A stretch of 64,000 nt of DNA from an uncultured Candidatus Saccharibacteria bacterium (GCA_964510435.1 CAZEBU010000001.1:52627-116626), one strand, 5' to 3'; positions 23,990-50,104 are shown, numbered from the stretch's first letter. A program made the numbers and translations. The notes: a model not told the origin generated them from the sequence alone.

Positions 23990-24625
23990 GTGAAGGTTGT
24001 TAAAGGCAACAAAGAATTCGACATATCAGAGGAGCAGTATAAAAAGCTAATCAACAACTATAAAAATATTATTCTCGATATAGGAACGGGGGACGGAAGG
24101 TTCATCTATAAAAATGCTTTAGAAAATATAGAAGAATTTTATATCGGATTAGATCCTAGTGCAAAACAACTGAAAAACTACTCCAAGAAAGCAGTAAGAA
24201 AAAAATTGCCTAACGCTTTATTCGTCATAGGTTCCTCCCATAACATTCCAAAAGAGTTAGAAAACACTATAAATACCCTCTACGTAATTCTGCCCTGGGG
24301 AACCTTATTACAAAACCTGGTATTACCATCACGAGAATTCATAAACAGCTTAAGTAAATTATTAATAGCAAATGGGAAAACAATGTTTATCTTAAGTTAT
24401 TCCCTGGAATTTGAACCGTCAGAGACTAATAGGTTAAGTTTACCGGAACTTTCAGAAGAACATTTAAAAACACATCTAATGAGTACCATGGAGAAAGAGA
24501 GGTTTAAAAACATAAAAATTATCGGCATGGAAAAGGGTAGCTTAAAATCTTTAGAGAGTACTTGGGGCAAAAAGCTCGCTTACGGTAATATTCGAAAAAT
24601 ATTCAAAATTACCGCAGAAAGGTAG
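23990..24625 (+). CDS. class I SAM-dependent methyltransferase
   Basis: Motif I ILDIGTGDGRF. Confidence 0.5.
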   Translation: MKVVKGNKEFDISEEQYKKLINNYKNIILDIGTGDGRFIYKNALENIEEFYIGLDPSAKQLKNYSKKAVRKKLPNALFVIGSSHNIPKELENTINTLYVILPWGTLLQNLVLPSREFINSLSKLLIANGKTMFILSYSLEFEPSETNRLSLPELSEEHLKTHLMSTMEKERFKNIKIIGMEKGSLKSLESTWGKKLAYGNIRKIFKITAER

Positions 24626-26980: not shown

Positions 26981-27000
26981 CATATCTTTATATTATCGTC

Positions 27001-27077
27001 GGGGTGTGGCGCAGTTGGCTAGCGCGCACGCATGGGGTGCGTGAGGTCGCGGGTTCGAGTCCCGCCACCCCGACCAT
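27001..27077 (+). tRNA. tRNA-Pro (anticodon GGG), CCA encoded
   Basis: Hand-folded cloverleaf: acceptor CGGGGTG/CACCCCG; D-stem GCGC/GCGC; anticodon stem CACGC/GCGTG with loop AUGGGGU; T-arm GCGGG-TTCGAGT-CCCGC. Confidence 0.85.
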
Positions 27078-27200
27078 TTAAAAAACCAGTCCTCAAATAC
27101 TTTATTATTCGGTGTTATACCAACTAATACTCCTGGTTCGATAGTTTCCAGTTTTGCATTAACCATTTCGCTATTTCCTTTAAATGCTATGAACGGTTTT
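27078..27200. repeat. conserved tRNA-Pro 3' flank (pseudo-ORF remnant on the minus strand); a paralogous copy lies at 50265-50390
   Basis: The minus-strand translations are ...NAKLETIEPGVLVGITPNNKVFEDW and ...NAKLKSVKPFELVTIGKNIGAFKY. Neither copy has an intact ORF. Confidence 0.45.
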
Positions 27201-27374
27201 TGCAGGTCAATATCAAGTATTCCGCCTTTTATAGTAAAGTTCGAGCCTAAACTTCTTAATATCAACGTTTTATCCTCGGCTGTTACTAGTTAATATATAG
27301 CACCTATAGTAATTATTGACATCGTAAGCTGCTTAGGTTATCATTCAGACATAGACAGAGAGCGTGGGTTCGCC

Positions 27375-28184
27375 CTAGTTGGCGCTTGTACCCAAAGCAC
27401 TGTCTATTTTCTTTTCTATATTTCCTTTAAACTCTGTAATTTCAAAACTACGTCCATAACCCAACCTATAGCTACCAGTTTCTGCCATTTGCTTAACGCC
27501 CAGCTTTTTCTGAACGTGAGCCATCAACCTATATTTTGCACTTTTCCTACCACCCCTGATAGAAATTAGCCCATATTTCAGTTTAAAGGCGTAGGCAACA
27601 CATCCAATAAGCACATCGACCAATTGAATTTCGCTCACAGCGTGTGATTCGACACGACAAATACCGTATAATGCGTTTCTTCTTGTACTCGCTCTTATTT
27701 TTCGCTTAGTATCTTTTTCGAACGTGTCTGCTTTTGGAGTACTTACATCATCAGCCAACACAACCATATATTCTCCAGCACCTAGGGAACTGGCAATCAA
27801 CTTACCAGCAAACGCGTTATAGGCTTTGTTGTGGTTGCTTTTGAAATATTTTTTTATGTCTAAACCCTGCTTATCGAAAAAAAGGCTATTGAATTTAAGG
27901 TGTGGAGTACTGAAAAATATATCTACCAAACCTTTGTAAAGCGTTAAATTGTCGTCACGGACATTACTAAATTTAAATTCTCCACGAAAATCAGTTTTAT
28001 CCTTGTAACTAACTATTTTCTTATGAAGAGCGGAAGGTTTATGTACATACAATAGTCCCAAACCGAATACCCTATCTTCTTTTGGGGAATGAAGAAGACC
28101 AACTTCATCTAAAAACCCAAAATAGTTGATTTTTTGCTTTGGTCCAGGTTTTGCTGCCATAGTAGGTTCTACTTCGTTTCGCAA
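27375..28184 (-). CDS. DUF3800-family protein
   Basis: The N-terminus has YFGFLDEVG (cf. the DESG motif) and the C-terminus has SEIQLVDVLIGCVAYAF (cf. QLADLIAYA). Confidence 0.45.
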   Translation of the reverse strand: MRNEVEPTMAAKPGPKQKINYFGFLDEVGLLHSPKEDRVFGLGLLYVHKPSALHKKIVSYKDKTDFRGEFKFSNVRDDNLTLYKGLVDIFFSTPHLKFNSLFFDKQGLDIKKYFKSNHNKAYNAFAGKLIASSLGAGEYMVVLADDVSTPKADTFEKDTKRKIRASTRRNALYGICRVESHAVSEIQLVDVLIGCVAYAFKLKYGLISIRGGRKSAKYRLMAHVQKKLGVKQMAETGSYRLGYGRSFEITEFKGNIEKKIDSALGTSAN

Positions 28185-28273
28185 TTATTACAACACAATT
28201 GTACGCAATAATTGTATGTTAATCAAGTGCATCTATTGTTATTTATCAATTTGTAAGGCGAACACACAAAAGA

Positions 28274-28305
28274 GTTACAAACATAGTCTAATATGGTAGA
28301 CCAGG
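28274..28305 (+). repeat. junction repeat, copy 1 (divergent)
   Basis: GTTACAAACATAGTCTAATATGGTAGACCAGG. Confidence 0.4.
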
Positions 28306-28354
28306 CTTTTTGACTGCTCTTACAACAAATTTTATCATCGTGTATAATGAGTCC

Positions 28355-28789
28355 ATGAACGAAATTGGTACTCAAATTAGAGGAGACCACAAAAACCCTT
28401 ATCACCTTTCGGTTGGAGCAGTTGTTACCAACAACAACCTGGTTGTTCTTATAAAAAAAGGTGGCAACTTTTATACATTGCCAAGAGAAACTATTTATTC
28501 CCTGGAAAACGTACACGGGGCTGTGCAAAGAGGTCTGGAAGAAGAAGTGGGGATTAACTCCGAGGTTGTAAAGTTTTTAGGTTCAGTAATTGAACATTTT
28601 AATCGTCCAGACGGTACAAAAGTAGAAAAAACAACTTTATACTTCTTGTGTGAAAAAGCTTCTGATTATAAAGAAGACGAGACGGACGAGGAGGTTATTT
28701 GGGTTGAGAACCAAAAAGCCCTAGAGTTGCTTAAAAAGTGTGGTAATGAGGAATACAATATAGTAGACAGAGCTTTCAATAAGACCTGA
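28355..28789 (+). CDS. NUDIX hydrolase
   Basis: Nudix box GAVQRGLEEEVGI. The start is ATG 28355; the track uses an upstream TTG. Confidence 0.6.
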   Translation: MNEIGTQIRGDHKNPYHLSVGAVVTNNNLVVLIKKGGNFYTLPRETIYSLENVHGAVQRGLEEEVGINSEVVKFLGSVIEHFNRPDGTKVEKTTLYFLCEKASDYKEDETDEEVIWVENQKALELLKKCGNEEYNIVDRAFNKT

Positions 28790-28817
28790 CTGCTACGTTC
28801 CCCGAACTTATCAAAAA

Positions 28818-28847
28818 GTTGCAAACGTCGTTCACTATGGTCGACCA
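28818..28847 (+). repeat. junction repeat, copy 2
   Basis: GTTGCAAACGTCGTTCACTATGGTCGACCA, 29 nt after the NUDIX stop. Confidence 0.6.
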
Positions 28848-28852
28848 GTGGA

Positions 28853-28895
28853 AAAGCGGGTGTTGCCCAAAGGGTAATAGCCGCTTTTTCATTTG
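28853..28895 (+). terminator. rho-independent terminator-like hairpin
   Basis: AAAGCGG-loop-CCGCTTT followed by TTTTCATTTGTT. Confidence 0.5.
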
Positions 28896-28898
28896 TTA

Positions 28899-29001
28899 TG
28901 GCGGGACGAGAATGATTCGCAGCGAGCGGAGGCGAGCGAGAGGGGGTCGACTGGCTCGCCAGCAGGCGAGAACAGGTGACCGAGTCCCGCCACCCCGACC
29001 A
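28899..29001 (+). repeat. tRNA-Pro 3'-half-like element: GGCGGG...(~70-nt insert)...GAGTCCCGCCACCCCGACCA
   Basis: The last 21 nt (28981-29001) are identical to the 3' end of tRNA-Pro(GGG) (T-loop/stem, acceptor and CCA). The 5' GCGGG can pair with CCCGC like a T-stem, with a large insert in place of the T-loop. Confidence 0.55.
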
Positions 29002-29119
29002 GATTGGGCAGCGTTGTAACCACGATGCCTCAAAAACCCTTTAACCGCTTGCAAAAAGACCCCTCATTTTTCCAACATTCGAACCGCTGTTTTGCTTATT
29101 TTGGTCCGGCTAGAAATTC

Positions 29120-29968
29120 CTAATCTATGGAACATACCTGTTCTGCTTCAGTTACAAGTTCCATTACCCTTTTAGAATCAAATGATTTATCTAGCAATAC
29201 CCTCCGGCTTTTTTCTTCTCTAAGATCCCTACATAAAACGATGCCACAGTCTAACAAATCCTTTTTCTCTTGTTGTGTAATACTCTTTAAACACGTTATT
29301 GGATGTAAACCGGAATCATCTATAAGTTTTTGTAACGATGCATCATTTGGATACCCCCAGCCCAACATCTTAACACCGGCACATTCCCCAAATTTTATAG
29401 CATCAGATGTAAACTTAGTGTTTGTGACAACCCATCCTTGATGGAATTTATTCATGTGACCTTCTTTTTTTTCCCACACATCAGCTACGTCCTCGAACCT
29501 AGATTTTATATACATTGGAACCTTTACATCTGTTTTATAACCCTGCCTATTATGATATTTACACTCAATCATAAAATGCTCATTATCCTTCAATGCGACA
29601 ACGTCAACCTCGTGACTAACACACTTCCCTTGCACAATTGCCCCCACCTCCACCTTGTACCCATAATTCTCCAAAATCCTACCGATATATCTTTCAAACG
29701 GGAAACCTGTTGGTCCTAATTGCATAATTGCCTTTTTCAGATTATATCTGGATGTTGTATGAGGTTCATGTTTGTTAAGAAAATCTACTATGATCTCGTG
29801 AATTTCTTTGGTTGATATGTTGTTGTAAAGCTTCGCAAGCACAAATTCTCGGGCCCTCTCCTCAAGACCTCTATTTATCCCAGCATTTCTTATGGACCTA
29901 ATTAGCTTTTCGGCCGAAAAAAGTTGCTGAGAAGAATCATACTTCGTTACATAAATTTTTTCAGTCAT
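29120..29968 (-). CDS. ATP-cone domain fused to an Mrr-like (PD-(D/E)xK) restriction endonuclease domain
   Basis: The N-terminus KIYVTKYDSSQQLFSAEKLIRSI is an ATP-cone. The centre FERYIGRIL...HEVDVVAL...MIECKYH is the Mrr catalytic core. Confidence 0.55.
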   Translation of the reverse strand: MTEKIYVTKYDSSQQLFSAEKLIRSIRNAGINRGLEERAREFVLAKLYNNISTKEIHEIIVDFLNKHEPHTTSRYNLKKAIMQLGPTGFPFERYIGRILENYGYKVEVGAIVQGKCVSHEVDVVALKDNEHFMIECKYHNRQGYKTDVKVPMYIKSRFEDVADVWEKKEGHMNKFHQGWVVTNTKFTSDAIKFGECAGVKMLGWGYPNDASLQKLIDDSGLHPITCLKSITQQEKKDLLDCGIVLCRDLREEKSRRVLLDKSFDSKRVMELVTEAEQVCSID

Positions 29969-32231
29969 TTGAAACTTTAATTAGATTTTTCTCAACTCGT
30001 TTTAGTAGAACGGCATTTGTAGCAACTATTATTGAAGATGCTGACATTAATAATGCCGATATTTCAGGGCGTAACGTAATCCCATAAGCCGGGTATAGAA
30101 TTCCTGCTGCAATAGGTATAGCAAGAACGTTATATACACTTGCCCAAACCAAATTCTGTTTCATTTTTGTGACAGTTGCCTTAGATAACTTAATAGCATT
30201 CAATACATCAAGAGGGTCTGATTTCATTAAGACGATATCTGCGGTCTCAATGGCCACATCAGTTCCAGCGCCAATTGCAATTCCAACGTCTGCCTGGGCT
30301 AGCGCTGGAGCATCATTAACTCCATCACCAACCATTGCGGTAAATTTTCCTTCCGATTGAAGTTGCTTTATATGGTTAGCCTTATCTTCAGGAAGAACTT
30401 CTGCAAAAAACCTTTTGATATTAAGGTCCTTTGCAATATGCTCTGCAGTTTTAAAATTATCTCCCGTAATCATCACAGCTTCTATCCCAAGCTTGTTTAA
30501 CATGGAAATTGTCATTTTAGCACTTTCTTTAACAGGGTCCATAGCAGCAACTACGCCTGCTATTTTTTTATTTATTGCTAACAACATAATTGTTTTACCC
30601 TGTTCCAAAAGATTATTTAGAGGAACCTCAATTTCTTTAAGCTCAACGTTGTTATTTCTCATTAGTTTTGCTGTACCTACTAAGACTTCTTTACCAGCAA
30701 CAGTAGCTACTACGCCATGCCCGGACAAACTCTTAAACTTTGTCACATCATTTGATATCCTGCTCTGTAAATTCCTTCTTTCAACTTCTTCTAAAACTGC
30801 TGTGCTTAGTGGGTGACCTGATTTTTTTTCAGCGGCGGCGTCCAAAAGTAATATTTCTTCTTCAGAAAAATCGTTAACGGCTATTACGTCAGTGATTTTA
30901 GGTTTACCTTGAGTTAACGTTCCAGTTTTGTCCAGTACAATAGCCTGAATCTTAGAGGCCTGCTCCAAAGTTACTGCATCTTTGATTAAAATGTTGTTCT
31001 TAGCTCCAAGACCTGTTCCGACCGCTACTACTGTTGGTGTCGCTAAACCTAGAGCATCTGGACAGGCAATAATAATAGCTGAAATAGCGAATGTTAAAGC
31101 GAAGAGTAGGGGTTGTCCCACGAAAATATACCAAATCGAAAATGTTATAATTCCACTTCCCACGGCTAGTATTACTAAGTAAGCTGCGGCTTTGTCTGCA
31201 ATTCTTTGCCCAGGTGCTTTTGAGTTCTGAGCGGTTTCGACTAACTTCACTATCTGAGCCAGGGCAGTGTCTCCACCAACCTTCATAGCTCTAAACTTTA
31301 TAGACCCGGCTTGGTTTATAGATCCACCTATTACCTTGTCACCTAATTGCTTACTAACGGGAAGTGATTCCCCTGTCACCAAAGATTCATCAATTGAAGT
31401 CTCTCCCTCTATAATCTCCCCATCTACTGGAATCTTGTCTCCCGGTTTTATAAGTACAATGTCCCCTAATATAATTTCGGCGGTATCTATAAGCATTTCC
31501 GAATTGTCTTTAATAACAGTCGCTTTTGGAGGTACCAAATCAAATAAGGCTCTTAATGAGTCGGACGTCCCCCGCCTAGACTTCATTTCCATCCAATGGC
31601 CAAACAAAACAAATGTTACAAGCATTGCAGCAGCTTCATAGAAGGTTTCTTGGCCAAAAAGAGTCAAAGCTATACTAAACAAGTAAGCTGCTAGAACCCC
31701 CGTGGAAATTAACACAGACATATTTAGTTTCTTAGCTTTAAGGGAATTGTAAGCGCCCCTTACAAAAATATTCCCAGTGCCTAAAACTATTGGTGTAGTT
31801 AATAGAAAAAGCAAAACACCTACAGGTATGGGAGACGGTAAAATGAGACCAAACACCTCAGTTGCTAAAGGTGAATATAGGATAACTGGTATAGAGAGAA
31901 TGAAGGAGATAAAAAACCTTCGCTTCATATCCTTTTCCATTTGTTTAGCCATACTGGGATCGGACATAGCAGCCTCGTGGTCCTGATGGCTCATATGCTC
32001 ACTTTTTAGTTTTAGGTCTTCACCATCGGAGTGCTTATACTCATGTCCGTCATATTCATGCTTGCTTTTAAGATTGTACTCATACTGTTTCGCCTCCATA
32101 TCAGATCCGCATGTAACGGTTATTTTTTCTGCTATGCAGCAAAAACAGGAATCTGTGGTTTTTGGATTTTCATGTTCTTTTTTATGGCTCTTCATAATAA
32201 TTATCTCCTCCTTGTACTTATTGTGTACCAA
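29961..32231 (-). CDS. heavy-metal (probably copper) translocating P1B-type ATPase with a His-rich N-terminus
   Basis: DKTGTLT, GDGVNDAP, the TM motif ACPDALGLATP (CPD rather than CPC/CPH), and an N-terminal His-rich stretch. Confidence 0.8.
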   Translation of the reverse strand: MVHNKYKEEIIIMKSHKKEHENPKTTDSCFCCIAEKITVTCGSDMEAKQYEYNLKSKHEYDGHEYKHSDGEDLKLKSEHMSHQDHEAAMSDPSMAKQMEKDMKRRFFISFILSIPVILYSPLATEVFGLILPSPIPVGVLLFLLTTPIVLGTGNIFVRGAYNSLKAKKLNMSVLISTGVLAAYLFSIALTLFGQETFYEAAAMLVTFVLFGHWMEMKSRRGTSDSLRALFDLVPPKATVIKDNSEMLIDTAEIILGDIVLIKPGDKIPVDGEIIEGETSIDESLVTGESLPVSKQLGDKVIGGSINQAGSIKFRAMKVGGDTALAQIVKLVETAQNSKAPGQRIADKAAAYLVILAVGSGIITFSIWYIFVGQPLLFALTFAISAIIIACPDALGLATPTVVAVGTGLGAKNNILIKDAVTLEQASKIQAIVLDKTGTLTQGKPKITDVIAVNDFSEEEILLLDAAAEKKSGHPLSTAVLEEVERRNLQSRISNDVTKFKSLSGHGVVATVAGKEVLVGTAKLMRNNNVELKEIEVPLNNLLEQGKTIMLLAINKKIAGVVAAMDPVKESAKMTISMLNKLGIEAVMITGDNFKTAEHIAKDLNIKRFFAEVLPEDKANHIKQLQSEGKFTAMVGDGVNDAPALAQADVGIAIGAGTDVAIETADIVLMKSDPLDVLNAIKLSKATVTKMKQNLVWASVYNVLAIPIAAGILYPAYGITLRPEISALLMSASSIIVATNAVLLKRVEKNLIKVSND

Positions 32232-32902
32232 TTTAAATGTTCATACAACCCCGACCACAAAAATCCTAGTACAAGGGCGAATAGTAGCTCTTCTAGAGGT
32301 ACTTTGAGTACCATAATCCCCGTCAGTTTTCCTAAATTCCACACCTCCATCGTCCAGTTAGGGAAAAAGAGGTTAAGTGCTACAAAAAAAATAAAATAAA
32401 AAGCAAAGAAAATAATAGAACCTAGAAACATCTTGTACTTGAGATCGGGCCTACAATAGAGTGAAAAAACACCTCCGATGAATAGAGAAGCTATTGTTAC
32501 ATAAATAATATTCCAGCCAGTAAATGTGTAAAGAAGTATAAATGCTAAAGGAGCTGACATGATGATTAGCTTATGGTAACGGTGCCTAAGGTGTTGCTTG
32601 TCTAGCTTGGAAAATTTTAAATATCTGGTCTTTCTAATCACTTCATAAGATACTGTAGCTAGACCGCCAATACTAAATGCGAATATTAGACTTTCTATGT
32701 CAAAGCCAGTTGTTTGAGCCAAATTGAACAAAGATGGCGGCTCCCAATATTCAGGTACAAAAAAAGGCTCTGTCAAACCAAAAAAGGAAGTAAGAACGCT
32801 AACGTATATCATAGCCCTTTTACTATCCTTATTAATCTTCAAGTAAACAAGAACCCAAACGAGCAAAAATATTAAACTACCAATAAGCCAAGTATATTGC
32901 AT
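32201..32902 (-). CDS. lycopene-cyclase-domain (CrtYcd-like) membrane protein
   Basis: Two PxEE motifs, FVPEYW and VPLEELLF, in a 7-TM protein. Confidence 0.45.
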   Translation of the reverse strand: MQYTWLIGSLIFLLVWVLVYLKINKDSKRAMIYVSVLTSFFGLTEPFFVPEYWEPPSLFNLAQTTGFDIESLIFAFSIGGLATVSYEVIRKTRYLKFSKLDKQHLRHRYHKLIIMSAPLAFILLYTFTGWNIIYVTIASLFIGGVFSLYCRPDLKYKMFLGSIIFFAFYFIFFVALNLFFPNWTMEVWNLGKLTGIMVLKVPLEELLFALVLGFLWSGLYEHLNWYTISTRRR

Positions 32903-32906
32903 AATT

Positions 32907-33173
32907 TTATTCTTTTAACTTTAGCAAAGCGTCATCATATTCTCTCTCACCTATTTCCCCCTCCGCAAATCTTCTCTTAAGAATATCAGTAGGATTTTCT
33001 GTATCCGTATCTCTGGATTCTGATTGTTTGCGACCCATCATATAAACGAAATAAACTAGCAGTGCTAAAGCAATTACCCCAAAAAACATCATATACATTA
33101 CTCCGCCAAAACTTGTACTTGGAAGATGGTGAGAGTACAGCTCTGTGTTTGTACTATGCGCTAATTGCTCCAT
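32907..33173 (-). CDS. SHOCT-domain membrane protein
   Basis: C-terminal ILKRRFAEGEIGEREYDDALLKL. Confidence 0.5.
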   Translation of the reverse strand: MEQLAHSTNTELYSHHLPSTSFGGVMYMMFFGVIALALLVYFVYMMGRKQSESRDTDTENPTDILKRRFAEGEIGEREYDDALLKLKE

Positions 33174-33191
33174 GTTCAGTAGTTAAATGGA

Positions 33192-33398
33192 CTAAACTCC
33201 AACATATTTTTGCGGGTCGTCTACAAAATGAATTTTGCAGTGTTCAGAGCAAAAGTGATATTCTTTCCCCTTGTAAATAAAAATAAAATCGGTTTCATTC
33301 GTAAACTCCATACCACAAACTAGATCTAGTAAAACCTTCTCAGCATAAGCAAACTCTTTTGGCCTTTTTAGCTTTTTCATAAAAAAATTACTTCCCAA
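33192..33398 (-). CDS. YHS/TRASH-domain metal-binding protein
   Basis: CGMEF...YHFCSEHC. Confidence 0.55.
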   Translation of the reverse strand: MGSNFFMKKLKRPKEFAYAEKVLLDLVCGMEFTNETDFIFIYKGKEYHFCSEHCKIHFVDDPQKYVGV

Positions 33399-33510
33399 CT
33401 AAAGCCACTTTAATTTTAGACAATAATGAAAAATTACCATTGGCTTCCGCCTTACCGCGTTTGACCTTAACTTTCTTTTTCTTTTTATTACCTCCGCAGC
33501 ATCCTGACAT
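33388..33510 (-). CDS. small Cys-rich basic peptide (MSGCCGGNKKKKKVKVKRGKAEANGNFSLLSKIKVALVGK), not in the ORF track
   Basis: 40 codons inside the copper cluster with an N-terminal CC motif. Its last codons share a few bases with the start of the YHS gene (33398). Confidence 0.2.
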   Translation of the reverse strand: MSGCCGGNKKKKKVKVKRGKAEANGNFSLLSKIKVALVGK

Positions 33511-33763
33511 ATTAATACTCCTTTAAAATTAAATTATTAATTACCTTTTTCATTTTCTATTAGTGTTCGCACCCAACTATACGTAAAACCTGTTATCCAG
33601 GCAGAAAGCGCTAAAGACACGCCTCCAAATAGTAATCCCGAAAAGGTCATATTCCATAACCCCAGTACATCAATGTTAAGACCGTGTAACCACTAACGGG
33701 TGATTTGCTAGTGTGTATTTATTTTTCATAATAATCAATATCTCCAATAACAAAACGTTAAAT

Positions 33764-34180
33764 TTATACTTTTTGATTGAGTTTTGCGATTGCTTTCTCC
33801 AAAGCAGCACTGAGCTTAGTTTCTATAACTCCTGCTATTTCCTTAATTTGTTCATTATCGCTAAACCCCAGCACACTTGTTGGTTTCATAAAACCAACTT
33901 TGACCTCTCCAGAATCCTCAAAAACAACTACGTTGCATGGAAGTAGGGCGCCTATTTCGGGTTCTGAAAGTAGTGCTCTATGTGCAAACTTTGGATTACA
34001 TGCACCAAGAATTATGTATTTTGAGTAATCTATATTGAGCTTATTCTTTATAATTTCCTGCACATTTATTTCTGTGATAATACCAAAATCTTCATTTTTT
34101 AGACTCTCTCTTATTGCCTTTTCCGTCTCTTCAAAACCGGAACCAGAAATTTGTATAACTGTATATGCTGCTTTTGTCAT
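33764..34180 (-). CDS. DUF302-domain protein
   Basis: The ILGACNPKFA...LPCNVVV pattern. Confidence 0.55.
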   Translation of the reverse strand: MTKAAYTVIQISGSGFEETEKAIRESLKNEDFGIITEINVQEIIKNKLNIDYSKYIILGACNPKFAHRALLSEPEIGALLPCNVVVFEDSGEVKVGFMKPTSVLGFSDNEQIKEIAGVIETKLSAALEKAIAKLNQKV

Positions 34181-34181
34181 C

Positions 34182-34454
34182 TTACGAACTCCTTTGCCTT
34201 TTTTTATAAATTTCTATTAATTCTTTTATAGCCTTATCTTTTTGGTTACTAAACTGCTCTGAAACATGAATTTGTAGATGCCTTTCAAGAACCACAACGT
34301 CGACGCTCTTAAGAGAGTTCTGAATTGCATAACTAAGATCCAATACATCAATACAATAAGCCTCCTCGTTGATCATTTTGGCAAGGCCATCCAATTGACC
34401 CTTAATTATATTGATTCTCCTTTCAATATCTTTTTTATTATATTCATCTTCCAT
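34182..34454 (-). CDS. csoR: CsoR/RcnR-family metal-sensing transcriptional repressor
   Basis: RINIIKGQLDGLAKMINEEAYCIDVLDLSYAIQNSLKSV...H, a 90-aa DUF156 fold. Confidence 0.7.
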   Translation of the reverse strand: MEDEYNKKDIERRINIIKGQLDGLAKMINEEAYCIDVLDLSYAIQNSLKSVDVVVLERHLQIHVSEQFSNQKDKAIKELIEIYKKRQRSS

Positions 34455-34465
34455 ATATATACCCT

Positions 34466-34482
34466 ATACCCCCCCGTGGTAT
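34466..34482. promoter_or_regulatory. candidate CsoR operator (ATACC-N7-GGTAT pseudo-palindrome)
   Basis: ATACCCCCCCGTGGTAT sits 12 nt upstream of the csoR start. CsoR operators are GC-rich TACC...GGTA palindromes. Confidence 0.45.
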
Positions 34483-34546
34483 CCGTCAAGAGCTTTTTTA
34501 TTACCATTATTAGAGAGGTTTCCTTATTTATAGCCTGGAGAATGTA

Positions 34547-34574
34547 GTTGTCCGTGACCGCCATGCTCGACCAG
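34547..34574 (+). repeat. junction repeat, copy 3 (divergent 5' half)
   Basis: GTTGTCCGTGACCGCCATGCTCGACCAG. It is followed by a hairpin with a T-run at 34577-34616 and by GGCAGGACGAGAA at 34622-34634. Confidence 0.45.
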
Positions 34575-34812
34575 AAAAAGCTAGATATCACCGCAGGTGG
34601 TAGCTAGCTTTTTTTAGTTGTGGCAGGACGAGAATAATTCGGACTGAACGAATGAAATGAGTGAAGGAGAGGGGCTAATGCTTTCGTAATAGACGCAGAA
34701 AATAATTTCCTAATAATTCAAAAGAATATTTATGATGATGGTCAATTGGACTATGCAAACAAAGCCATTAAAGATTTTGAATCTCAAGGGCTCCTAAACT
34801 AAGTTCATAAAA

Positions 34813-34823
34813 GTTACAAACAT
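34813..34823 (+). repeat. junction repeat half-site (5' half only)
   Basis: AAAAGTTACAAACAT, immediately 3' of the PIN gene. Confidence 0.25.
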
Positions 34824-34831
34824 TCTCCACC

Positions 34832-35281
34832 CTAAATTTTATAGTTAGCACGTATAAATTGCATGAAATCACCTGGGCTTATAACAATAATTCCAAAATC
34901 TCCTTTTATCACATCTAGTTTAAAGTGTTTTAAATTATAAGTAATCAGAAATCTAGCCTTTGTAATTACAGCTCCGGCTAAAACATGACTATCATACATA
35001 TCCAACAAATAACTTCCATATTTTTCTACTAAGGATGCTGGAGAACCGTGCAAATTAGTAATTTCAAATTCCTTATTGAATGACTTGGCTAAAACCTTGT
35101 TTGGTAGACTCAGTCTTTTTGCAACACCTCTAGTTTCTTTTAAAGATAGTTGTGTAGTAAGTTTAGTAACTTTTAGATCGTTGATAATAAAGTGAGCGGC
35201 ACCTTTTCTAGAAAAAAGAGACGAAACTATCACATCTGTATCCGGGAAGATTCTTATATCTTCAAGCTTATTTACTCTCAT
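34832..35281 (-). CDS. PIN-domain (PIN_3-like) toxin component
   Basis: N-terminal DTDVIVSSL and C-terminal D..D.HVLAGAVITKARFLITYNLKHF. Confidence 0.45.
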   Translation of the reverse strand: MRVNKLEDIRIFPDTDVIVSSLFSRKGAAHFIINDLKVTKLTTQLSLKETRGVAKRLSLPNKVLAKSFNKEFEITNLHGSPASLVEKYGSYLLDMYDSHVLAGAVITKARFLITYNLKHFKLDVIKGDFGIIVISPGDFMQFIRANYKI

Positions 35282-35543
35282 AAGCTTTAGACCTAAGTTC
35301 TTTTATAGTCTTTTGTATCTTCTCAATGTTTTTAAGATCCTCCTGCTCAGCTTGATATATATCGTAATCCAAACCTGTAAAGGCAAAATAGATAGACTTG
35401 GCTGGAATCCTATAAACACTGCCAAACCTTTTAGCAATAATTTCACCTCGCCTAATTAAATCGTAAACGGTATTCTTGTTAAGCTGAAGTATTTCTGCTA
35501 CTTCAACGGGGGTATAAGTTTTTGTATATAACATCTTACTCAT
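35268..35543 (-). CDS. excisionase-family helix-turn-helix DNA-binding protein (probable antitoxin of the PIN gene)
   Basis: TPVEVAEILQLNKNTVYDLIRRGEI. It overlaps the PIN gene by 14 nt. Confidence 0.55.
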   Translation of the reverse strand: MSKMLYTKTYTPVEVAEILQLNKNTVYDLIRRGEIIAKRFGSVYRIPAKSIYFAFTGLDYDIYQAEQEDLKNIEKIQKTIKELRSKAYESK

Positions 35544-35618
35544 TATGACCAGACTATACTATACAGTATAGAACTTGTCAATTACGTACTGATTAGGTAG
35601 GCTCGCACTCATCAAATG

Positions 35619-35648
35619 GTTGCAAACGTCGGTTACTATGCTCGACCA
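35619..35648 (+). repeat. junction repeat, copy 4
   Basis: GTTGCAAACGTCGGTTACTATGCTCGACCA. Confidence 0.55.
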
Positions 35649-35695
35649 GAAATCCCTATTGACGTCGAACAAACTCATATATACAATGTATACAC

Positions 35696-35962
35696 ATGTA
35701 CTTTGATTGGGATGGAAAAAAGAGCAAGAAACTCCAATCAATACGCAACATTAGTTTTGAGCAAATACTGGTAGAGATTAATAATGGCAACTTATTAGAC
35801 GTTATTGAGAATCCAAATCAAAAAAAGTATCCCAATCAGTTGATATACATAGTGAGATCGGGAAACTACGTTTATTTAGTTCCTTTTGTGATGGATAAAG
35901 AAAAGATTCTCTTGAAAACAATTTATCCTAGCAGAAAGTTTAAGAGATTATATGAAAAATAA
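35696..35962 (+). CDS. brnT: BrnT-family (DUF497) ribonuclease toxin
   Basis: MYFDWDGKKSKK...ISFEQI...YIVRSGNYVYLVPFV...KTIYPSRKFKRLYEK matches the BrnT pattern. Confidence 0.6.
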   Translation: MYFDWDGKKSKKLQSIRNISFEQILVEINNGNLLDVIENPNQKKYPNQLIYIVRSGNYVYLVPFVMDKEKILLKTIYPSRKFKRLYEK

Positions 35963-36248
35963 TAAAAACATGTATAAACCACTTGACGAATACGAAAAAG
36001 ATCTACAGGAAACCATTGATAAGGTGGATTCTTTTAAAAGACCTAAAAACTATAAGAAGGTTTTAGCGAAAGCATTAATAGCTGCAAACAACACCTCTTC
36101 AAAATCCAAGACTCTTAATATCCGTATTGCTGAAAAGGACTTAATTATGCTTAAAACTAAAGCTGAAAAGGTTGGTATGCCTTATCATACGCTTATTAAT
36201 ACTGTTTTACACCAGTATGCTAAGGGAGAATTAAAGGTCGATATTTAA
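35952..36248 (+). CDS. brnA: BrnA antitoxin (RHH)
   Basis: KTLNIRIAEKDLIMLKTKAEKVGMPYHTLINTVLHQYAKGELKV. It overlaps brnT by 11 nt. Confidence 0.6.
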   Translation: MKNNKNMYKPLDEYEKDLQETIDKVDSFKRPKNYKKVLAKALIAANNTSSKSKTLNIRIAEKDLIMLKTKAEKVGMPYHTLINTVLHQYAKGELKVDI

Positions 36249-36253
36249 AAAAA

Positions 36254-36283
36254 GTTCAAAACATCGTTCCTTATAGTCGACCA
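36254..36283 (+). repeat. junction repeat, copy 5
   Basis: GTTCAAAACATCGTTCCTTATAGTCGACCA, starting 6 nt after the brnA stop. Confidence 0.6.
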
Positions 36284-36394
36284 TGAAATTATGTAATCAC
36301 ATTTATGTGGTTAATTAACAAACTTTATAGCGGGTGATGGGTTTAGAAACCGTACTAGGCTCAAAGGGGGCATCCTGAGCGGAAATGCTGAAGA

Positions 36395-36712
36395 TCAAAC
36401 AACTTTAACTCCATTTTTCTTTATCTCAGTCACAAGCGGGTTGTACTTGTTATTAAAATCTTCAACCAAAAACGGGTGAGGCTCAATTAAATCACTTATA
36501 TCACGTCTAAGATGCATAAGTCTTACTCTCTCTCCATGCAAATCGTCGCTAAAGTCGGCTGAGACTATGCCTACATCCAAATCACTCCACTTGCTATTAG
36601 TACCCTTTACTCTTGATCCAAAAGCATACATTTCCTGCACGTTTATACCATTACTTTCAAGGACAGCTCTATATTCATTAAGAATGTCTAAATATTCTTG
36701 TGTTAAACTCAT
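36395..36712 (-). CDS. minimal nucleotidyltransferase (MNT) antitoxin
   Basis: FGSRVKGTNSKWSDLDVGIV, the GS...DxD motif. Confidence 0.65.
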   Translation of the reverse strand: MSLTQEYLDILNEYRAVLESNGINVQEMYAFGSRVKGTNSKWSDLDVGIVSADFSDDLHGERVRLMHLRRDISDLIEPHPFLVEDFNNKYNPLVTEIKKNGVKVV

Positions 36713-37092
36713 AGTGACCCTTCAACCCATGTATACAAATCTATGGAAACCTTTACCCATTTTTCAGCGTATTCTTTTGTAGCTTTTTTATAAAAACTTA
36801 GTTTGTAGTCATCATAACGTGTATCTAAGTTGAAGGTAGTTATTTCGTTAAGTCTTTCTTCAGTTTTGTTAGTGACTCCTAAATCAGCTTCTTTTGCCAA
36901 TCGTTTTAAATCGTGCGTGTATGGGATTTCCTTTCCCTGACTAACTAATAGCCCCTTTAATAGTTTTTCAAGAGATAGTTGCCAAAAAAACAAACACCAA
37001 TGATAGTAACCAAGGTCAAACATACCTTGTGCAGCATTTTTACTCTCTTCTGAGCCATCAATCCAATATTTTAAAGCTTCTTCCCTTTTCAT
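36709..37092 (-). CDS. HEPN-domain protein (partner of the MNT)
   Basis: LSLEKLLKGLLVSQGKEIPYTHDLKRL, with a 4-nt overlap with the MNT gene. Confidence 0.6.
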   Translation of the reverse strand: MKREEALKYWIDGSEESKNAAQGMFDLGYYHWCLFFWQLSLEKLLKGLLVSQGKEIPYTHDLKRLAKEADLGVTNKTEERLNEITTFNLDTRYDDYKLSFYKKATKEYAEKWVKVSIDLYTWVEGSL

Positions 37093-37180
37093 ATAGGCAT
37101 TATACTAGATTGAAAGTTGCAAACATAATAGTCCGCTATAGACAACACAAAATTATACCTGAAGGGCATGACACGAAGTA

Positions 37181-37210
37181 GTGGCAAACGTCGTTTACTA
37201 TGGTCGACCA
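37181..37210 (+). repeat. junction repeat, copy 6
   Basis: GTGGCAAACGTCGTTTACTATGGTCGACCA. Confidence 0.55.
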
Positions 37211-37233
37211 TGGAAGTTTGTTAATATTAGGAT

Positions 37234-37968
37234 GTGAACAAAAAAGGTTTTTCTGCTATTTTAGTTTTAACGCTGGTAGTTGTTACCGTAACTGTTTTTG
37301 TTCTTTACACAATACACTCTTCAAAGAAATCGACAGCACAGTTTTTTTCAACTCAAAAGCTTGCATACAGTAGTAATGGTATGGCCAGAGTGTACGATTT
37401 TTCGTCAAATAATCAGCTAGATCTGAAGATATTGTCAGTTACAAGCTTTTTGTGGTCCCATAATGGAAAAGAACTTGCATTAATGGTTCAAGGGGAATAC
37501 GATCCCGGCAAACTTACGTTCATACCTATTAAAAGAGTTTATGCAACAACTGCAGGATTTAATTACATGGTCTATTTAGTGGATCTGGAAACTGGGATCA
37601 CAACCTTGCTATTGGATAAAGTTTTTGGAAAAGTTCGGTGGTCAAAAGACACTACAGGACTATATTTTACAGAACAGTACCGTCAAGGAAGGCCGCTTAT
37701 CCTGGGAAATCAATCAGGCTTGCCACCAGACCAAGAGGAATATTTTTTCATATCTTTGGATGGAGAAAAGAGGAAAACAACAAAAAAAGAATTTGACGAA
37801 ACTTCTTACTTTAATACAGCAAGTTCACTAAACTCCCCCGATGGGAAACTCATCATAGAACTGTCTGATAACATTGTGGGGGATAAACAAATGAAAATAA
37901 AAGACCAAAACAACAATATAGTTGTTGAGCTTACAGGGCAACTCCCTGTATGGGCACCTATCCTGTAA
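37234..37968 (+). CDS. membrane-anchored protein with PD40/TolB-like beta-propeller repeats
   Basis: An N-terminal TM helix and repeated W/SxDGKxL motifs. Confidence 0.35.
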   Translation: MNKKGFSAILVLTLVVVTVTVFVLYTIHSSKKSTAQFFSTQKLAYSSNGMARVYDFSSNNQLDLKILSVTSFLWSHNGKELALMVQGEYDPGKLTFIPIKRVYATTAGFNYMVYLVDLETGITTLLLDKVFGKVRWSKDTTGLYFTEQYRQGRPLILGNQSGLPPDQEEYFFISLDGEKRKTTKKEFDETSYFNTASSLNSPDGKLIIELSDNIVGDKQMKIKDQNNNIVVELTGQLPVWAPIL

Positions 37969-37992
37969 AACTTCGTTCCGTATAGTCGAGCA
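37965..37992 (+). repeat. junction repeat, copy 7 (overlaps the stop codon of the preceding gene)
   Basis: GTAAAACTTCGTTCCGTATAGTCGAGCA. Confidence 0.5.
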
Positions 37993-37996
37993 GATT

Positions 37997-39418
37997 TTAA
38001 ATAATATGCTTTAACCTATTCAGACTATAAGCATACCCTAATTCGTTGTTGTTAAAATTGCTGGTAGAAAGAACTCTTAAACCAATTTGAAGTTGACAGA
38101 TCCTATGGCGTTCCCAATAATTCGATACATTTAATCCCCTATCTTTTATGTAACTAAGATATTTTTTGCTAAAATCGTCATCTTTGTGCCAAAAGTCATA
38201 CCACGCCGGATCATACACAAAATCACCAATCATCGAATTTGCCCAATCTAGTACAGTAACCTGCTTTGTTTCCGGATTATAAATTACATCAGCATAACCA
38301 TAATCACTGTGGACTAAATATGCATCTTTTAACTGGGTGTATTTTAACAATATCTTCATCTCGGTTAATGCAGACTTAAATATATTTTTGTGCTCTACAC
38401 CATCTTTGAGTAGTTGTTTATATTTTTTCTCATGCAAAAATTTCAATAAAAAATCTTCCCAATTTTGATAGAGAGCGCTTCTTTTCTTATTCCAAGACCC
38501 AAAACCCCCGAACTTATCTATTCGCGCAGTGTGTATTTTATATAAGGTCTGTATAACATAGGGTAAGGCTGTGGAATACTCATCTTTATCCAAATCATAT
38601 AAAACACGTCCCAAAACTCTTTCTGATATGGCGTAATAAACTTTTTTACTATATCTACCTAAATTAGTAACCTCGGGAATAGAAAAATATTCAGAGAAAT
38701 CCTCATAAGCAAGTTTATCTTTGTAGAGATTTTCATAATTTTTGCTGAACCTAACAACATACTCTTTTTCTTTATGCACGAATGTGAAAGTGTTGGTTGT
38801 AGAACCATACTTTATTTCTTCAATATTATTTGCTTCTATGTTCAGTTCTTTTCTGAGAAAATTCATTGCGTCACTTTTCCCAACTGAAGGTTTATTGCCA
38901 ACGGTATTAGCATAGGTTTCAATGTGCGGCAGAATTCCTACATAACACAATAAATAACTATCCTTAGAAATTGCACCTGTTTCTATGCCAACCAAGAACG
39001 CTATGATCCTATGTAGTCCGTCTACGAGCTGCCTATTATTCTTTTCATATGACTCATTGAGAACTAAAGCCGGATTAACTCTTCTGCCAATACTAAAAGA
39101 TTCAACGATATTTTCTATTTTGACTACAAAATTAAGGTCAACATTCTTAATTTCTTTATAATTATTACGATAGTTTGCAGCCATTTCAGCTGCCGAAAAT
39201 TGTGAATAGTTTTTTGTCAGGTAGTAAGATGTTGTGTTTGGAGTTTTTTTAGGATCAGACCAAAGAAGGGTACTAACTAAATTGTTGTAGAAAAACCTTT
39301 TTGAACCTAACCAACTATACTTAATAATCATATCGGATACATCCCAACCTCTTTTTTCTTTCCCAGCTTCCACCTTTTCGAAAACATCCAAAATCACACT
39401 ACGTGGGACATACTCCAT
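37997..39418 (-). CDS. two-domain protein: N-terminal ParB/Srx-like domain fused to an APH/choline-kinase-like phosphotransferase domain
   Basis: The N-terminal part has QLVDGLHRIIAFL (cf. the ParB DGHHR motif). The C-terminal part has VHSDYGYADVIY...VLDWANS, the kinase catalytic loop and DFG-equivalent. Confidence 0.45.
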   Translation of the reverse strand: MEYVPRSVILDVFEKVEAGKEKRGWDVSDMIIKYSWLGSKRFFYNNLVSTLLWSDPKKTPNTTSYYLTKNYSQFSAAEMAANYRNNYKEIKNVDLNFVVKIENIVESFSIGRRVNPALVLNESYEKNNRQLVDGLHRIIAFLVGIETGAISKDSYLLCYVGILPHIETYANTVGNKPSVGKSDAMNFLRKELNIEANNIEEIKYGSTTNTFTFVHKEKEYVVRFSKNYENLYKDKLAYEDFSEYFSIPEVTNLGRYSKKVYYAISERVLGRVLYDLDKDEYSTALPYVIQTLYKIHTARIDKFGGFGSWNKKRSALYQNWEDFLLKFLHEKKYKQLLKDGVEHKNIFKSALTEMKILLKYTQLKDAYLVHSDYGYADVIYNPETKQVTVLDWANSMIGDFVYDPAWYDFWHKDDDFSKKYLSYIKDRGLNVSNYWERHRICQLQIGLRVLSTSNFNNNELGYAYSLNRLKHII

Positions 39419-39453
39419 GGCTACATACTAACAGTCCTTGTATCAACAGAAAA

Positions 39454-39492
39454 GTTCAAAACATCGTTCCGTCGAGTCGGCCACCCCGACCA
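39454..39492 (+). repeat. junction repeat copy 8 fused to a tRNA-Pro 3'-end-like sequence
   Basis: GTTCAAAACATCGTTCC followed by GTCGAGTCGGCCACCCCGACCA. The final 20 nt differ by 1-2 nt from the 3' ends of both tRNA-Pro genes. Confidence 0.55.
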
Positions 39493-39507
39493 TGATAAAA
39501 TCAACTC

Positions 39508-39840
39508 ATGATAATTACCCTCGACAGAAAAATAACACCCGAGGAGTTTGAGAAAGCAAGGGAAGTTTACAATGACTATATAAAAACCGTCATCGATGTG
39601 GAAAGAAATATACTAGTAGTCGGCGGCGAGTACCATATAGATTGTGAAGAAGTTTTGCTTAAAACGGGAAGTAAACTTGAAAACCTTTACGGTGGGGGTT
39701 ATAAGGTCAGCACAAAGGAGGTTGAGTATATGGCAATGAGTAATTACAAACCTGCTTTAGGAAAAACAACCTATGAAATAATGGACAAAGAAATTCGTGA
39801 CAAATTATATAAGTTAACAAAGAAGTACTTGGAAATATGA
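39508..39840 (+). CDS. hypothetical protein
   Basis: ORF in a cassette. Confidence 0.3.
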   Translation: MIITLDRKITPEEFEKAREVYNDYIKTVIDVERNILVVGGEYHIDCEEVLLKTGSKLENLYGGGYKVSTKEVEYMAMSNYKPALGKTTYEIMDKEIRDKLYKLTKKYLEI

Positions 39841-40115
39841 ACAGAGATAAACAATTCATTATAAACTCAATAAAGATGGATCTTCATAGGGTCGTAACAG
39901 CCGCGGGTGATATAACAAAAAAAGCGCCCACAGAATCGATAAGAACATTCATGGAACATGCAGATAAAGACTTTGATAAAACCGAATTAGATGAAAGGGA
40001 AAAAAGTATCAGACAGGAACTAAAAGCGCTTGCAAATAATCTGGAGGCCTTGTCAGATCCACACACCAGGCTGAGATGGACCGAGGATGTCATGACTGCC
40101 CGGTGCAGGTTGTGA
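39837..40115 (+). CDS. hypothetical protein
   Basis: ORF with a 4-nt overlap with the upstream gene. Confidence 0.3.
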   Translation: MNRDKQFIINSIKMDLHRVVTAAGDITKKAPTESIRTFMEHADKDFDKTELDEREKSIRQELKALANNLEALSDPHTRLRWTEDVMTARCRL

Positions 40116-40121
40116 TAAAGC

Positions 40122-40147
40122 GCAAAACTTCGTTCCGTATAGTTAAC
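40122..40147 (+). repeat. junction repeat, copy 9 (3' half degenerate)
   Basis: GCAAAACTTCGTTCCGTATAGTTAAC. Confidence 0.45.
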
Positions 40148-40191
40148 TGTAATCTTTGGTCGCTGTCACAACAAAAATAACTGAGTTAAAA

Positions 40192-42066: not shown

Positions 42067-42360
42067 ATGCAAAAATTAAAGTCAATAAACATAAGAGATT
42101 TTCAACATAATTTATCCATGTACCTAGACTTAGTTAAATTGAAGCCTTTGGTAATAACAAGAAATGGTGTGGAAGAAGCCGTTTTTATCGATCCTGCTTC
42201 GTATGAATACAAGAAAAAGTCAAAAAAATCAGTTAGAAAGTCTCAAGATATGATGGATTCTGCATTTATTGGTATGCACAAAAATAGAAAAGGCTGGAAA
42301 ACAAAAACTAACGCAGCGATTGCAGGTAAGTTGAGGGGCAATGCTTGGAGTGGTAACTAA
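42067..42360 (+). CDS. Phd/YefM-type antitoxin
   Basis: INIRDFQHNLSMYLDLV...PLVITRNGVEEAVFIDPASYE. Confidence 0.55.
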   Translation: MQKLKSINIRDFQHNLSMYLDLVKLKPLVITRNGVEEAVFIDPASYEYKKKSKKSVRKSQDMMDSAFIGMHKNRKGWKTKTNAAIAGKLRGNAWSGN

Positions 42361-42730
42361 AATACTTGCTGACACCTCTATCATAATAGGTCTACAAAGA
42401 GCTGACGAACCTGTCACCAATTTATTTTCGAAGCACCAAAAACACATAAGAGTGTCTAGAATTACAGCCTGTGAGCTACTTTATGGATCCAGAAACAGCA
42501 AAGAGAAGAAATTGAACAAAGACTTTATAGACAAACTCAATATAGTTGAAATTGACCCTGAAATATCGCTATTATCATATAAATTAATAGATAAATATGG
42601 ATTAAAGACCAAGTTTGGGATAGCAGACTCTCTAATAGCAGCTACGGCTATTTCGAGAAAGCTATCTTTGTGGACAGAAAATACAAAGCATTTTAGATCG
42701 ATCAAAGAAGTTTCTATTTTCAAACATTAG
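42341..42730 (+). CDS. vapC: VapC-type PIN-domain toxin
   Basis: ADTSIIIGL...ITACELLYG...IADSLIAATA. It overlaps the antitoxin by 20 nt. Confidence 0.65.
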   Translation: MLGVVTKILADTSIIIGLQRADEPVTNLFSKHQKHIRVSRITACELLYGSRNSKEKKLNKDFIDKLNIVEIDPEISLLSYKLIDKYGLKTKFGIADSLIAATAISRKLSLWTENTKHFRSIKEVSIFKH

Positions 42731-42741
42731 GTGTAAAAAAA

Positions 42742-50090: not shown

Positions 50091-50104
50091 ATATACTGGT
50101 AATC

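Follow-up and report, generated by a model that had tools for sequence, protein, structure and literature searches.

Two arrays of small gene cassettes, each starting at the 3' end of a tRNA-Pro gene and each punctuated by copies of a conserved motif of about 36 bp, were found in a 64,000-nt stretch of DNA from an uncultured Candidatus Saccharibacteria bacterium (GCA_964510435.1, CAZEBU010000001.1:52627-116626; hereafter the window, with positions counted from its first nucleotide). A search with a hidden Markov model (HMM) of the motif (nhmmer) detected 11 full and two half copies in the window, every one on the plus strand; all 13 are intergenic or overlap a stop codon, and the functional modules are separated by them. 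On balance, and with a modest preference, we lean towards reading the motif as a recombination site that is defined by its sequence and closes mobile cassettes at their 3' end, the primary site being the tRNA-Pro 3' end. An att-like cassette junction had already been considered in an initial annotation of the window. Conservation of the motif in about 25 loci, its anchoring at tRNA-Pro genes and the breakpoints of a cassette shared by two related loci speak for that idea, whereas neither the window nor about 20 related loci yielded a recombinase able to use the motif, and the mechanism proposed below is put forward conditionally.

The initial annotation had described a repeat of about 30 bp at ten listed positions, all in one orientation, in two subfamilies and with a palindrome centred on GTCGAC. 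All ten positions do hold the motif (pattern searches and nhmmer), and orientation, subfamilies and palindrome are as described, while the length had been underestimated. Alignment of all window copies gives a conserved block of about 36 nt (AAAAAGTTnCAAACnTCGTTCnnTATnGTCGACCA; window consensus AAAATAGTTGCAAACATCGTCTGCTATAGTCGACCA), which includes an A-rich 5' part (AAAATAG) and is bordered on both sides by flanks without conservation. Nor is the feature limited to positions 27078-40150, as had been proposed, since a second motif-bounded region that follows tRNA-Pro(CGG) and spans 50189-58120 contains three further copies (Table 1). No copy was detected by nhmmer in the remaining ~45 kb of the window, so that the motif is restricted to the two tRNA-Pro-proximal regions. 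Pattern searches allowing up to three mismatches recovered both subfamilies and gave no match in shuffled sequence, and a degenerate core pattern matched nine times against 0.13 expected from shuffles. The 3' part of the motif forms a palindrome of 12-14 bp (ATRGTCGACYAT). Its GTCGAC centre occurs nine times in the window against 4.6 expected, with six of the nine sites lying within motifs, and avoidance of GTCGAC as a restriction site was rejected on these counts. The motif ends in GTCGACCA; its final six bases, CGACCA, are those with which tRNA-Pro ends as well, and in the tRNA they include the Pro-specific G72/A73. For modules on the plus strand, the gaps between stop codon and motif are 23, 0, overlapping, -1 and 15 nt, in agreement with the 0-30 nt and the overlap near 37966 given earlier. 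The two subfamilies are intermixed in both arrays and no chimeras between them were seen, which argues that the body of each motif remains tied to its left-hand cassette.

The distribution of the motif was examined in genome and metagenome collections, and the loci recovered are designated here by L and a number. A scan of GTDB with an exact pattern and one genome per species gave four matches, of which three were true copies with matching flanks, from two Patescibacteria metagenome-assembled genomes (MAGs) and one Microgenomates MAG. In metagenomes, 34 loci were matched, with true copies in about 25 and the consensus tAAAATAGTTGCAAACATCGTCTGCTATAGTCGACCA; eight of the 34 were discarded as partial or chance matches (L008, L015, L019, L021, L028, L032, L033 and L036), the match in L032/L036 falling inside a gene that resembles a tyrosyl-tRNA synthetase. 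L001 was likewise a chance match, and L020 had no nhmmer match to the motif HMM. Across 43 distinct copies from the ~25 loci, most positions of the motif block are conserved at 90% or more, and conservation stops at both edges. Within these ~25 metagenome and MAG loci, every motif-bearing locus that has a name is named Patescibacteria, and the gene content of the window, together with the names on homologues, places its organism in the Candidate Phyla Radiation (CPR). The motif was not found in viral contigs, a phage collection or a plasmid collection. Arrays also occur elsewhere: a WWE3-like genome (L022, equivalent to L045-47) has eight co-oriented copies in 6.6 kb, and others have two or three. 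In all nine non-redundant arrays with enough upstream sequence (L004, L006, L009, L022, L031, L037, L038 and the two window arrays), the first motif is preceded at 1-3.4 kb by a co-oriented tRNA-Pro gene. The anticodon of this tRNA is GGG, CGG or TGG, and all of the anchoring genes end in CC(C)GACCA.

Evidence of cassette movement comes from L011 and L031, and in this pair the breakpoints fall at the motif. A 1152-bp cassette, consisting of an HTH_17-type gene for 239 amino acids (aa) and a 90-aa gene, is shared by the two loci (L011 866-2017 and L031 243-1394) with 97.7% identity. It is the first cassette after tRNA-Pro in L031 and the second, after another cassette and a motif, in L011. In L011, its left end (GGTAAAAACAGCC…) follows directly on the …GTCGACCA of the preceding motif; on the right, the identity between the two loci passes through the motif to GACCAT and ends there. 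The motif thus travels with the cassette on its left, with the breakpoints at the 3' end of the motif. A P-loop kinase cassette (65% identity) lies 3' of the 1152-bp cassette in L031 and 5' of it in L011, so that the order is A-B in L031 and B'-A in L011.

We also checked whether the motif has properties of a folded or regulatory element. When 61-nt windows around 11 copies were folded as single-stranded DNA, z-scores ranged from -1.38 to +1.09 relative to shuffles and no structure was shared among the copies; because there is no stable fold, the motif is neither an attC-type hairpin nor a terminator. Both kinds of hairpin were rejected on this folding and on a scan of the consensus. A terminator scan weakly flagged one of the ten motif copies at 27-41 kb, and true terminator-like hairpins with a T-run follow two motif copies as separate elements. 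In an Rfam scan of the window, the two tRNAs were the only hits and the motif matched no family. Promoter-like -10 boxes follow many motif copies at distances that vary from 3 to 39 nt, and about half of the modules lie on the other strand, on which grounds a fixed promoter element was also rejected.

In the mechanism that we propose, the motif would be read as double-stranded DNA sequence and would close a small mobile cassette made up of cargo and motif. We infer that a circular cassette with one motif would recombine enzymatically, at or near its ...GACCA, with one of two partners, the 3' end of tRNA-Pro or the motif of an existing array. Such an insertion would keep the tRNA intact and leave the cassette's own motif at the distal side, and arrays would grow from the 3' end of tRNA-Pro genes. 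The logic would be that of an integron, with tRNA-Pro playing the part of attI and the motif that of attC, except that the site would be set by sequence and not by a folded hairpin. Modules could be accepted in either orientation with their own promoters, and the enzyme would be encoded elsewhere or have been lost. The only recombinase traces in the window, truncated large serine recombinase genes beside both tRNAs, belong to a second layer, namely tRNA-targeting islands whose right end consists of motif, hairpin, a structured unit (unit X, described below) and a tRNA repeat.

Several observations weigh against this mechanism, beginning with the missing recombinase mentioned above. Conservation is limited to the left side of the putative crossover, a pattern expected neither of a classical core site of tyrosine recombinases nor of an att site of serine integrases. 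The shuffling suggested by sequence comparison comes from the single genome pair L011/L031, and a contig search showed no circular cassette contigs. In four data sets, contigs that belong to the same organism match the window colinearly and reveal no population polymorphism; the window array looks static in this population, either sedentary or fossil. Motif variants are largely genome-specific, which could reflect gene conversion or binding of a host protein. In L048, a syntenic relative, wholly different genes occupy the interval between tRNA-Pro and the DUF5674 gene with almost no motif, and the locus can thus vary without it. The DUF5674 gene and its partner are flanked by the motif in four genomes, with homology beginning directly after GACCA; the pair has 72-91% aa identity in 203 homologues and always stands at the distal end of the array. 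It probably represents vertically inherited core genes that mark the ancestral far side of an insertion hotspot rather than a mobile cassette, and therefore does not count as evidence of mobility. In the same interval of L048, a 244-aa reverse transcriptase (RVT_1; 4096-4830) stands beside a 5'-3' exonuclease, and the two may form a retron-like defence module.

A second kind of junction is present in the same regions. According to the initial annotation, no recombinase is encoded in the window, and this holds for intact genes; in the scanned open reading frames (ORFs) of the window, no tyrosine recombinase domain was found either. However, C-terminal remnants of large serine recombinases (~70 residues) lie on the minus strand directly after both tRNA-Pro genes; their catalytic (resolvase) domain is not intact, and the second remnant contains stop codons. 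The recombinase family has 338 matches, named Patescibacteria, Falkowbacteria or Uhrbacteria, most of them truncated (200-400 aa); full-length members combine Resolvase, Recombinase and Zn-ribbon domains (PF00239/PF07508/PF13408). Genes of this family always run into an oppositely oriented tRNA gene (Gln, His, Ser, Tyr or Pro) and stop inside its 3' end, and their C-termini have sequences such as ...WSGWRDSNP (window remnants, L004, L032, L036 and L040-L044). Recombinase loci at tRNA-His, -Ser or -Gln are without the motif. An intact element with a tRNA-Pro-specific serine recombinase was not retrieved among these loci, in which contigs end at the recombinase (L044, L040) or other tRNAs are targeted without a motif, and no relatives of the recombinase were found in viral contigs.

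The fragments of the tRNA-Pro 3' end reported earlier near some motif copies are real. One is an exact repeat of 21-22 nt of the tRNA-Pro(GGG) 3' end at 28981-29001, and another, of 21 nt, is fused to a motif left half at 39472-39492. In L048, the sequence immediately behind the corresponding repeat is homologous to window positions 28991-29097; the ancestral flank takes up again at 29002, which marks 27077-29001 as a discrete insertion. The right end of this island has the order motif, hairpin, unit X and tRNA 3' repeat. Unit X is a GC-rich element of ~80 nt with an RNA fold z-score of -3.5, closed by GGCGGGAC/GTCCCGCC and 78% conserved in L011; elsewhere in the window it occurs truncated at 34622-~34680, after the half motif at 34547, and as a variant at 55877-55933, after the copy at 55794. 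It may be an att arm, a mini-element or a small RNA; a source in group I or tRNA introns was dismissed, the relevant report (PMC13011429) being concerned with introns in the anticodon loop. Elements of the unit X type (~80-150 nt) always end in the tRNA-Pro 3' end, and L011 has a longer variant twice (195-297 and 2050-2246, 98.7% identical), with similar 43-nt hairpins on both sides of at least the second copy. In L004, the T-arm and 3' end of a decayed tRNA-Pro lie 6 nt behind a motif. The junctions at 39450-39492 and in L004, where the motif stands at the place that a P arm would occupy, resemble the partial tRNAs and fragmented integrases of tRNA-anchored islands, and they suggest a possible origin of the motif's 3' part in a tRNA-Pro 3' end. 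The tRNA-Pro 3' repeats and the ~80-nt structured unit together are a second junction layer typical of serial integration into a tRNA. An arrangement of tRNA, short insert and tRNA 3' repeat is common to L048, with a 168-nt insert after tRNA-Pro, and L040, where an exact 30-nt copy of the tRNA-Gln 3' end (1402-1431) lies 105 nt from tRNA-Gln (1536-1607) and overlaps the recombinase C-terminus.

These junctions raise the question of whether a separate cassette system is needed at all. The motif copies could be att-derived scars, each composed of a P arm and a shortened tRNA-Pro 3' end, left at attR by successive serine-recombinase islands whose integrases have since been lost. Serial integration into tRNA genes of the tycheposon type is a known concept (10.1101/2020.12.28.424599), and recombinase remnants of a family that always overlaps tRNA 3' ends abut both tRNA-Pro genes and L004. 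The order motif, (hairpin), unit X and tRNA 3' repeat recurs in the window and in L048, and in L004 the decayed tRNA end follows almost directly on the motif. The hybrid at 39450-39492, a motif left half joined to 21 nt of the tRNA 3' end, lies upstream of DUF5674, where other genomes have a regular motif, and the 3' part of the regular motif could thus be a tRNA end with a 9-nt deletion. In that case, however, the identical deletion would have to recur or spread, and decaying scars would not be expected to stay nearly invariant over 36 nt in distant lineages. The motif also lacks the dyad symmetry expected of a serine-integrase att site, individual cassettes contain no recombinase fragments (tblastn), and the true tRNA repeats, at 22-30 nt, are junctions of another type. 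The motif is moreover missing from the recombinase loci at other tRNAs and from viral contigs. We regard the scar explanation as unlikely, yet as one to be taken seriously.

It is more doubtful still that the motif is a binding site of a host DNA-binding protein (an operator, insulator, roadblock or element of nucleoid organisation) spread by gene conversion or local duplication. A palindromic 3' part is typical of dimer binding, and homogenisation of the variants within a genome and the static array would be in line with such a role, as would the L022/L045 genome, in which seven of eight copies lie 28-77 nt upstream of plus-strand genes and five of eight share a conserved -10 box (TATAAT) 17 nt downstream of the motif. 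In several genomes the motif also stands directly upstream of the -10 box of DUF5674. On the other hand, seven of the 13 window copies have a minus-strand module behind them whose 3' end comes first, the spacing of -10 boxes from the motif is variable, and neither the strict co-orientation with and anchoring at tRNA-Pro nor the re-ordering at the motif is explained by protein binding. The two alternatives named in the initial annotation, a regulatory element and a dispersed repeat resembling miniature inverted-repeat transposable elements (MITEs), are thus not supported. A dispersed repeat of the MITE type or of the kind of repetitive extragenic palindromic (REP) sequences, or a terminator-like element, unlinked to module boundaries, fared worst. 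The motif is indeed short, multi-copy and intergenic, but it lacks terminal inverted repeats, target duplications, a stable hairpin and a U-run, its conservation ends at 36 bp, and it occurs in a single orientation and only downstream of tRNA-Pro; this explanation is largely refuted and, in our view, highly improbable. Casposon-type integration at tRNA-Pro was rejected on general considerations, there being no Cas1 or PolB genes and no inverted ends.

Table 1. Features of the two tRNA-Pro-anchored arrays (positions in the window)
Feature	Position	Strand	Evidence
tRNA-Pro(GGG), start of array 1, ends ...CCCCGACCA	27000-27076	+	ARAGORN; Rfam tRNA, 62 bits
C-terminal remnant (~70 aa) of large serine recombinase, gene reads into tRNA 3' end	27059-27280	-	tblastn to P0001, E 8e-11; alignment; family with PF00239/PF07508/PF13408
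Cassette: DUF3800 / PDC-M04A candidate defence gene	27375-28184	-	
Motif copy, degenerate	28269-28304	+	nhmmer, 24 bits
Cassette: NUDIX hydrolase	28310-28789	+	
Motif copy, subfamily 1, reference copy	28813-28848	+	pattern search, nhmmer
Terminator-like hairpin then T-run, after motif	28852-28889	+	
Unit X (structured, GC-rich, ~80 nt), ends in exact copy of tRNA-Pro(GGG) 3' end (28981-29001)	28900-29001	+	
Large module: ATP-cone/Mrr nuclease, Cu P-type ATPase, lycopene-cyclase-domain protein, SHOCT, DUF302, CsoR	29120-34454	-	
Motif, 3' half only; then hairpin (34575-34615) and truncated unit X (from 34622)	34547-34576	+	
Motif, 5' half only	34809-34830	+	nhmmer
Cassette: PIN toxin and HTH_17	34832-35543	-	
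Motif copy, subfamily 1	35614-35649	+	pattern search, nhmmer
Cassette: BrnT/BrnA-like pair	35696-36248	+	
Motif copy, subfamily 2, starts at BrnA stop codon	36249-36284	+	pattern search, nhmmer
Cassette: MNT/HEPN pair	36395-37092	-	
Motif copy, subfamily 1	37176-37211	+	pattern search, nhmmer
Cassette: 244-aa protein, no family match	37234-37968	+	
Motif copy, subfamily 2, overlapping stop codon	37961-37993	+	pattern search, nhmmer
Cassette: 473-aa protein with APH-type kinase domain	37997-39418	-	
Hybrid copy: motif left half fused to 21 nt of tRNA-Pro 3' end (TCGAGTCGGCCACCCCGACCA; tRNA part 39472-39492)	39450-39492	+	
DUF5674 and 92-aa partner, highly conserved Patescibacteria gene pair, distal end of array	39508-40115	+	
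Motif copy, subfamily 2, 3' end degenerate, last of array 1	40115-40148	+	nhmmer
tRNA-Pro(CGG), start of array 2	50189-50264	+	ARAGORN; Rfam
Second C-terminal remnant of serine recombinase, contains stop codons	50264-50449	-	tblastn
Motif copy, subfamily 2, perfect 14-bp palindrome	53699-53732	+	pattern search, nhmmer
Motif copy, then hairpin (55829-55866) and X-like unit with tRNA-Pro T-loop/3' remnant (55877-55933)	55794-55829	+	nhmmer
Cassette: BrnTA-like	55957-56584		
Motif copy, subfamily 1, after BrnTA-like cassette	56600-56634	+	pattern search, nhmmer

The cargo of both arrays is made up of toxin-antitoxin, defence and metal-resistance genes, with PDC-M04A and a NucC-like PD-DExK protein among the candidate defence families, and the array DNA has a GC content of 0.34-0.36 compared with ~0.40 in its surroundings. 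Array 1 runs in the order DUF3800, NUDIX, the large module from ATP-cone-Mrr and Cu-ATPase to CsoR, PIN with HTH, BrnTA, MNT/HEPN, the 244-aa protein, the APH-type kinase and DUF5674 with its partner. Array 2 consists of a 584-aa protein, DUF6602 (PD-DExK) and a 176-aa protein, then 189-aa and 223-aa proteins and UDG, the BrnTA-like cassette and PMT_2. Beyond the last motif copy of array 1, a Phd/PIN toxin-antitoxin pair and an ASCH-domain gene are located at 42067-43179, and in L045, too, an ASCH gene stands just past the last copy; the accessory region may therefore extend past 40150 without motifs. Upstream of array 1, positions 23990-24625 encode a homologue of the NpmA-type 16S rRNA (A1408) methyltransferase (Pfam E 5e-48) that is syntenic in L048. 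Upstream of tRNA-Pro(CGG) is a tandem direct repeat (two copies of GATGTATTACTTCGTAATATA at 50032-50096), for which Rfam gave a spurious miRNA-like match only. The window also encodes two proteins unusual for bacteria, a homologue of the CarS-like CDP-archaeol synthase (49378-49926) and a 958-aa ADP-forming acetyl-CoA synthetase fused to a ferredoxin-reductase-like domain (3189-6065).

In the tiny genomes of CPR/Patescibacteria few mobile elements have been recognised, and little is understood of the routes by which accessory and defence genes reach them. If the preferred reading of the motif as a recombination site is correct, a conserved and readily searchable 36-bp cassette-boundary site behind tRNA-Pro would open a direct way into the flexible gene pool of these bacteria. 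This would be a gene-capture system integron-like in its logic and different in site type, anchor and probably enzyme. More tentatively, and with less confidence than we place in the reading itself, the arrays might represent a lineage-wide integron analogue of CPR/Patescibacteria, with 36-bp sequence-defined sites, capture at tRNA-Pro 3' ends and a recombinase unrelated to IntI; the enzyme would possibly belong to the large serine recombinases that target tRNAs or be supplied by the host. In that case, bacteria with minimal genomes would possess a dedicated platform for collecting defence and toxin-antitoxin genes. Should the recombinase be found, a short sequence-defined site with a tRNA-end target could have practical interest.

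Among systems that are already known, small modules bounded by short conserved sites are familiar from the pdif modules of Acinetobacter plasmids, in which toxin-antitoxin or resistance genes are enclosed by XerC/XerD sites and no recombinase is encoded inside. The motif cassettes are likewise small, discrete and recombinase-free. Sites of the pdif type, however, have an 11-6-11 dyad, alternate in orientation and reside on plasmids, whereas the motif copies are direct repeats on a chromosome, anchored at a tRNA; by inspection, the motif consensus contains no Xer/dif arms (11-bp inverted arms with a 6-8 bp spacer). Sites of serine recombinases are ~40-50 bp long with partial dyad symmetry around a central dinucleotide. 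In the motif, no dyad is seen by inspection and the right half is not conserved, but the hybrid junction at 39450-39492 and the junction in L004 put it at the place that a P arm would occupy. The serine-recombinase layer itself does show what is expected of a tRNA element, with a recombinase remnant adjoining the tRNA 3' end, a direct repeat of that 3' end at the far boundary and the ancestral flank after it. Integrase-less elements also accrete beside integrative and conjugative elements (ICEs). Tycheposons of Prochlorococcus build tRNA-anchored islands by serial site-specific integration, with partial tRNAs and fragmented integrases (10.1101/2020.12.28.424599). The arrays described here share with islands of this type the start at a tRNA, internal partial 3' repeats (28981-29001; ~55917-55933), integrase fragments beside the tRNA, an arrangement in which newer elements push older ones outward and an adaptive or defensive cargo. 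They differ in that most junctions are a 36-bp motif every 0.5-1.5 kb instead of partial tRNAs, that each unit is one gene or a gene pair and has no module for integration or replication, and that the integrase remnants come from large serine recombinases with a reading frame that extends into the tRNA.

The likeness to integrons goes further, and in particular to CALINs, which are clusters of attC sites without an integrase (IntegronFinder, PMC4889954). One module is present per site, the sites are co-oriented and stand at the 3' end of the cassette, after or overlapping the stop codon; many cargos are toxin-antitoxin or defence genes, a fixed primary site heads the array and cassette order differs between relatives. 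The initial annotation had nevertheless held that the repeat is not an integron attC, and the comparison bears this out. An attC site is an imperfect palindrome of 55-140 nt that folds as a single-stranded hairpin, whereas the motif has 36 nt and forms no hairpin. The R''/L''/L'/R' boxes are absent from it: inspection of 43 copies revealed neither R'' (RYYYAAC) nor R' (GTTRRRY) cores, since the 5' sequences GTTGCAA, GTTACAA and GTTCAAA do not fit GTTRRRY and have no inverted partner. Integron arrays are headed by attI beside intI, those described here by the tRNA-Pro 3' end, with no IntI-type tyrosine recombinase found; their modules also lie in either orientation with their own promoters, and their hosts, where named, are CPR/Patescibacteria, unlike those of integrons and CALINs. 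Our search of the literature retrieved no description of such arrays, nor of the motif sequence in this context. In its logic the system is closest to integrons and CALINs, yet it fails their defining tests of attC structure, core sites and IntI, and the tRNA-Pro-anchored motif arrays point to an undescribed integron-like way of collecting genes.

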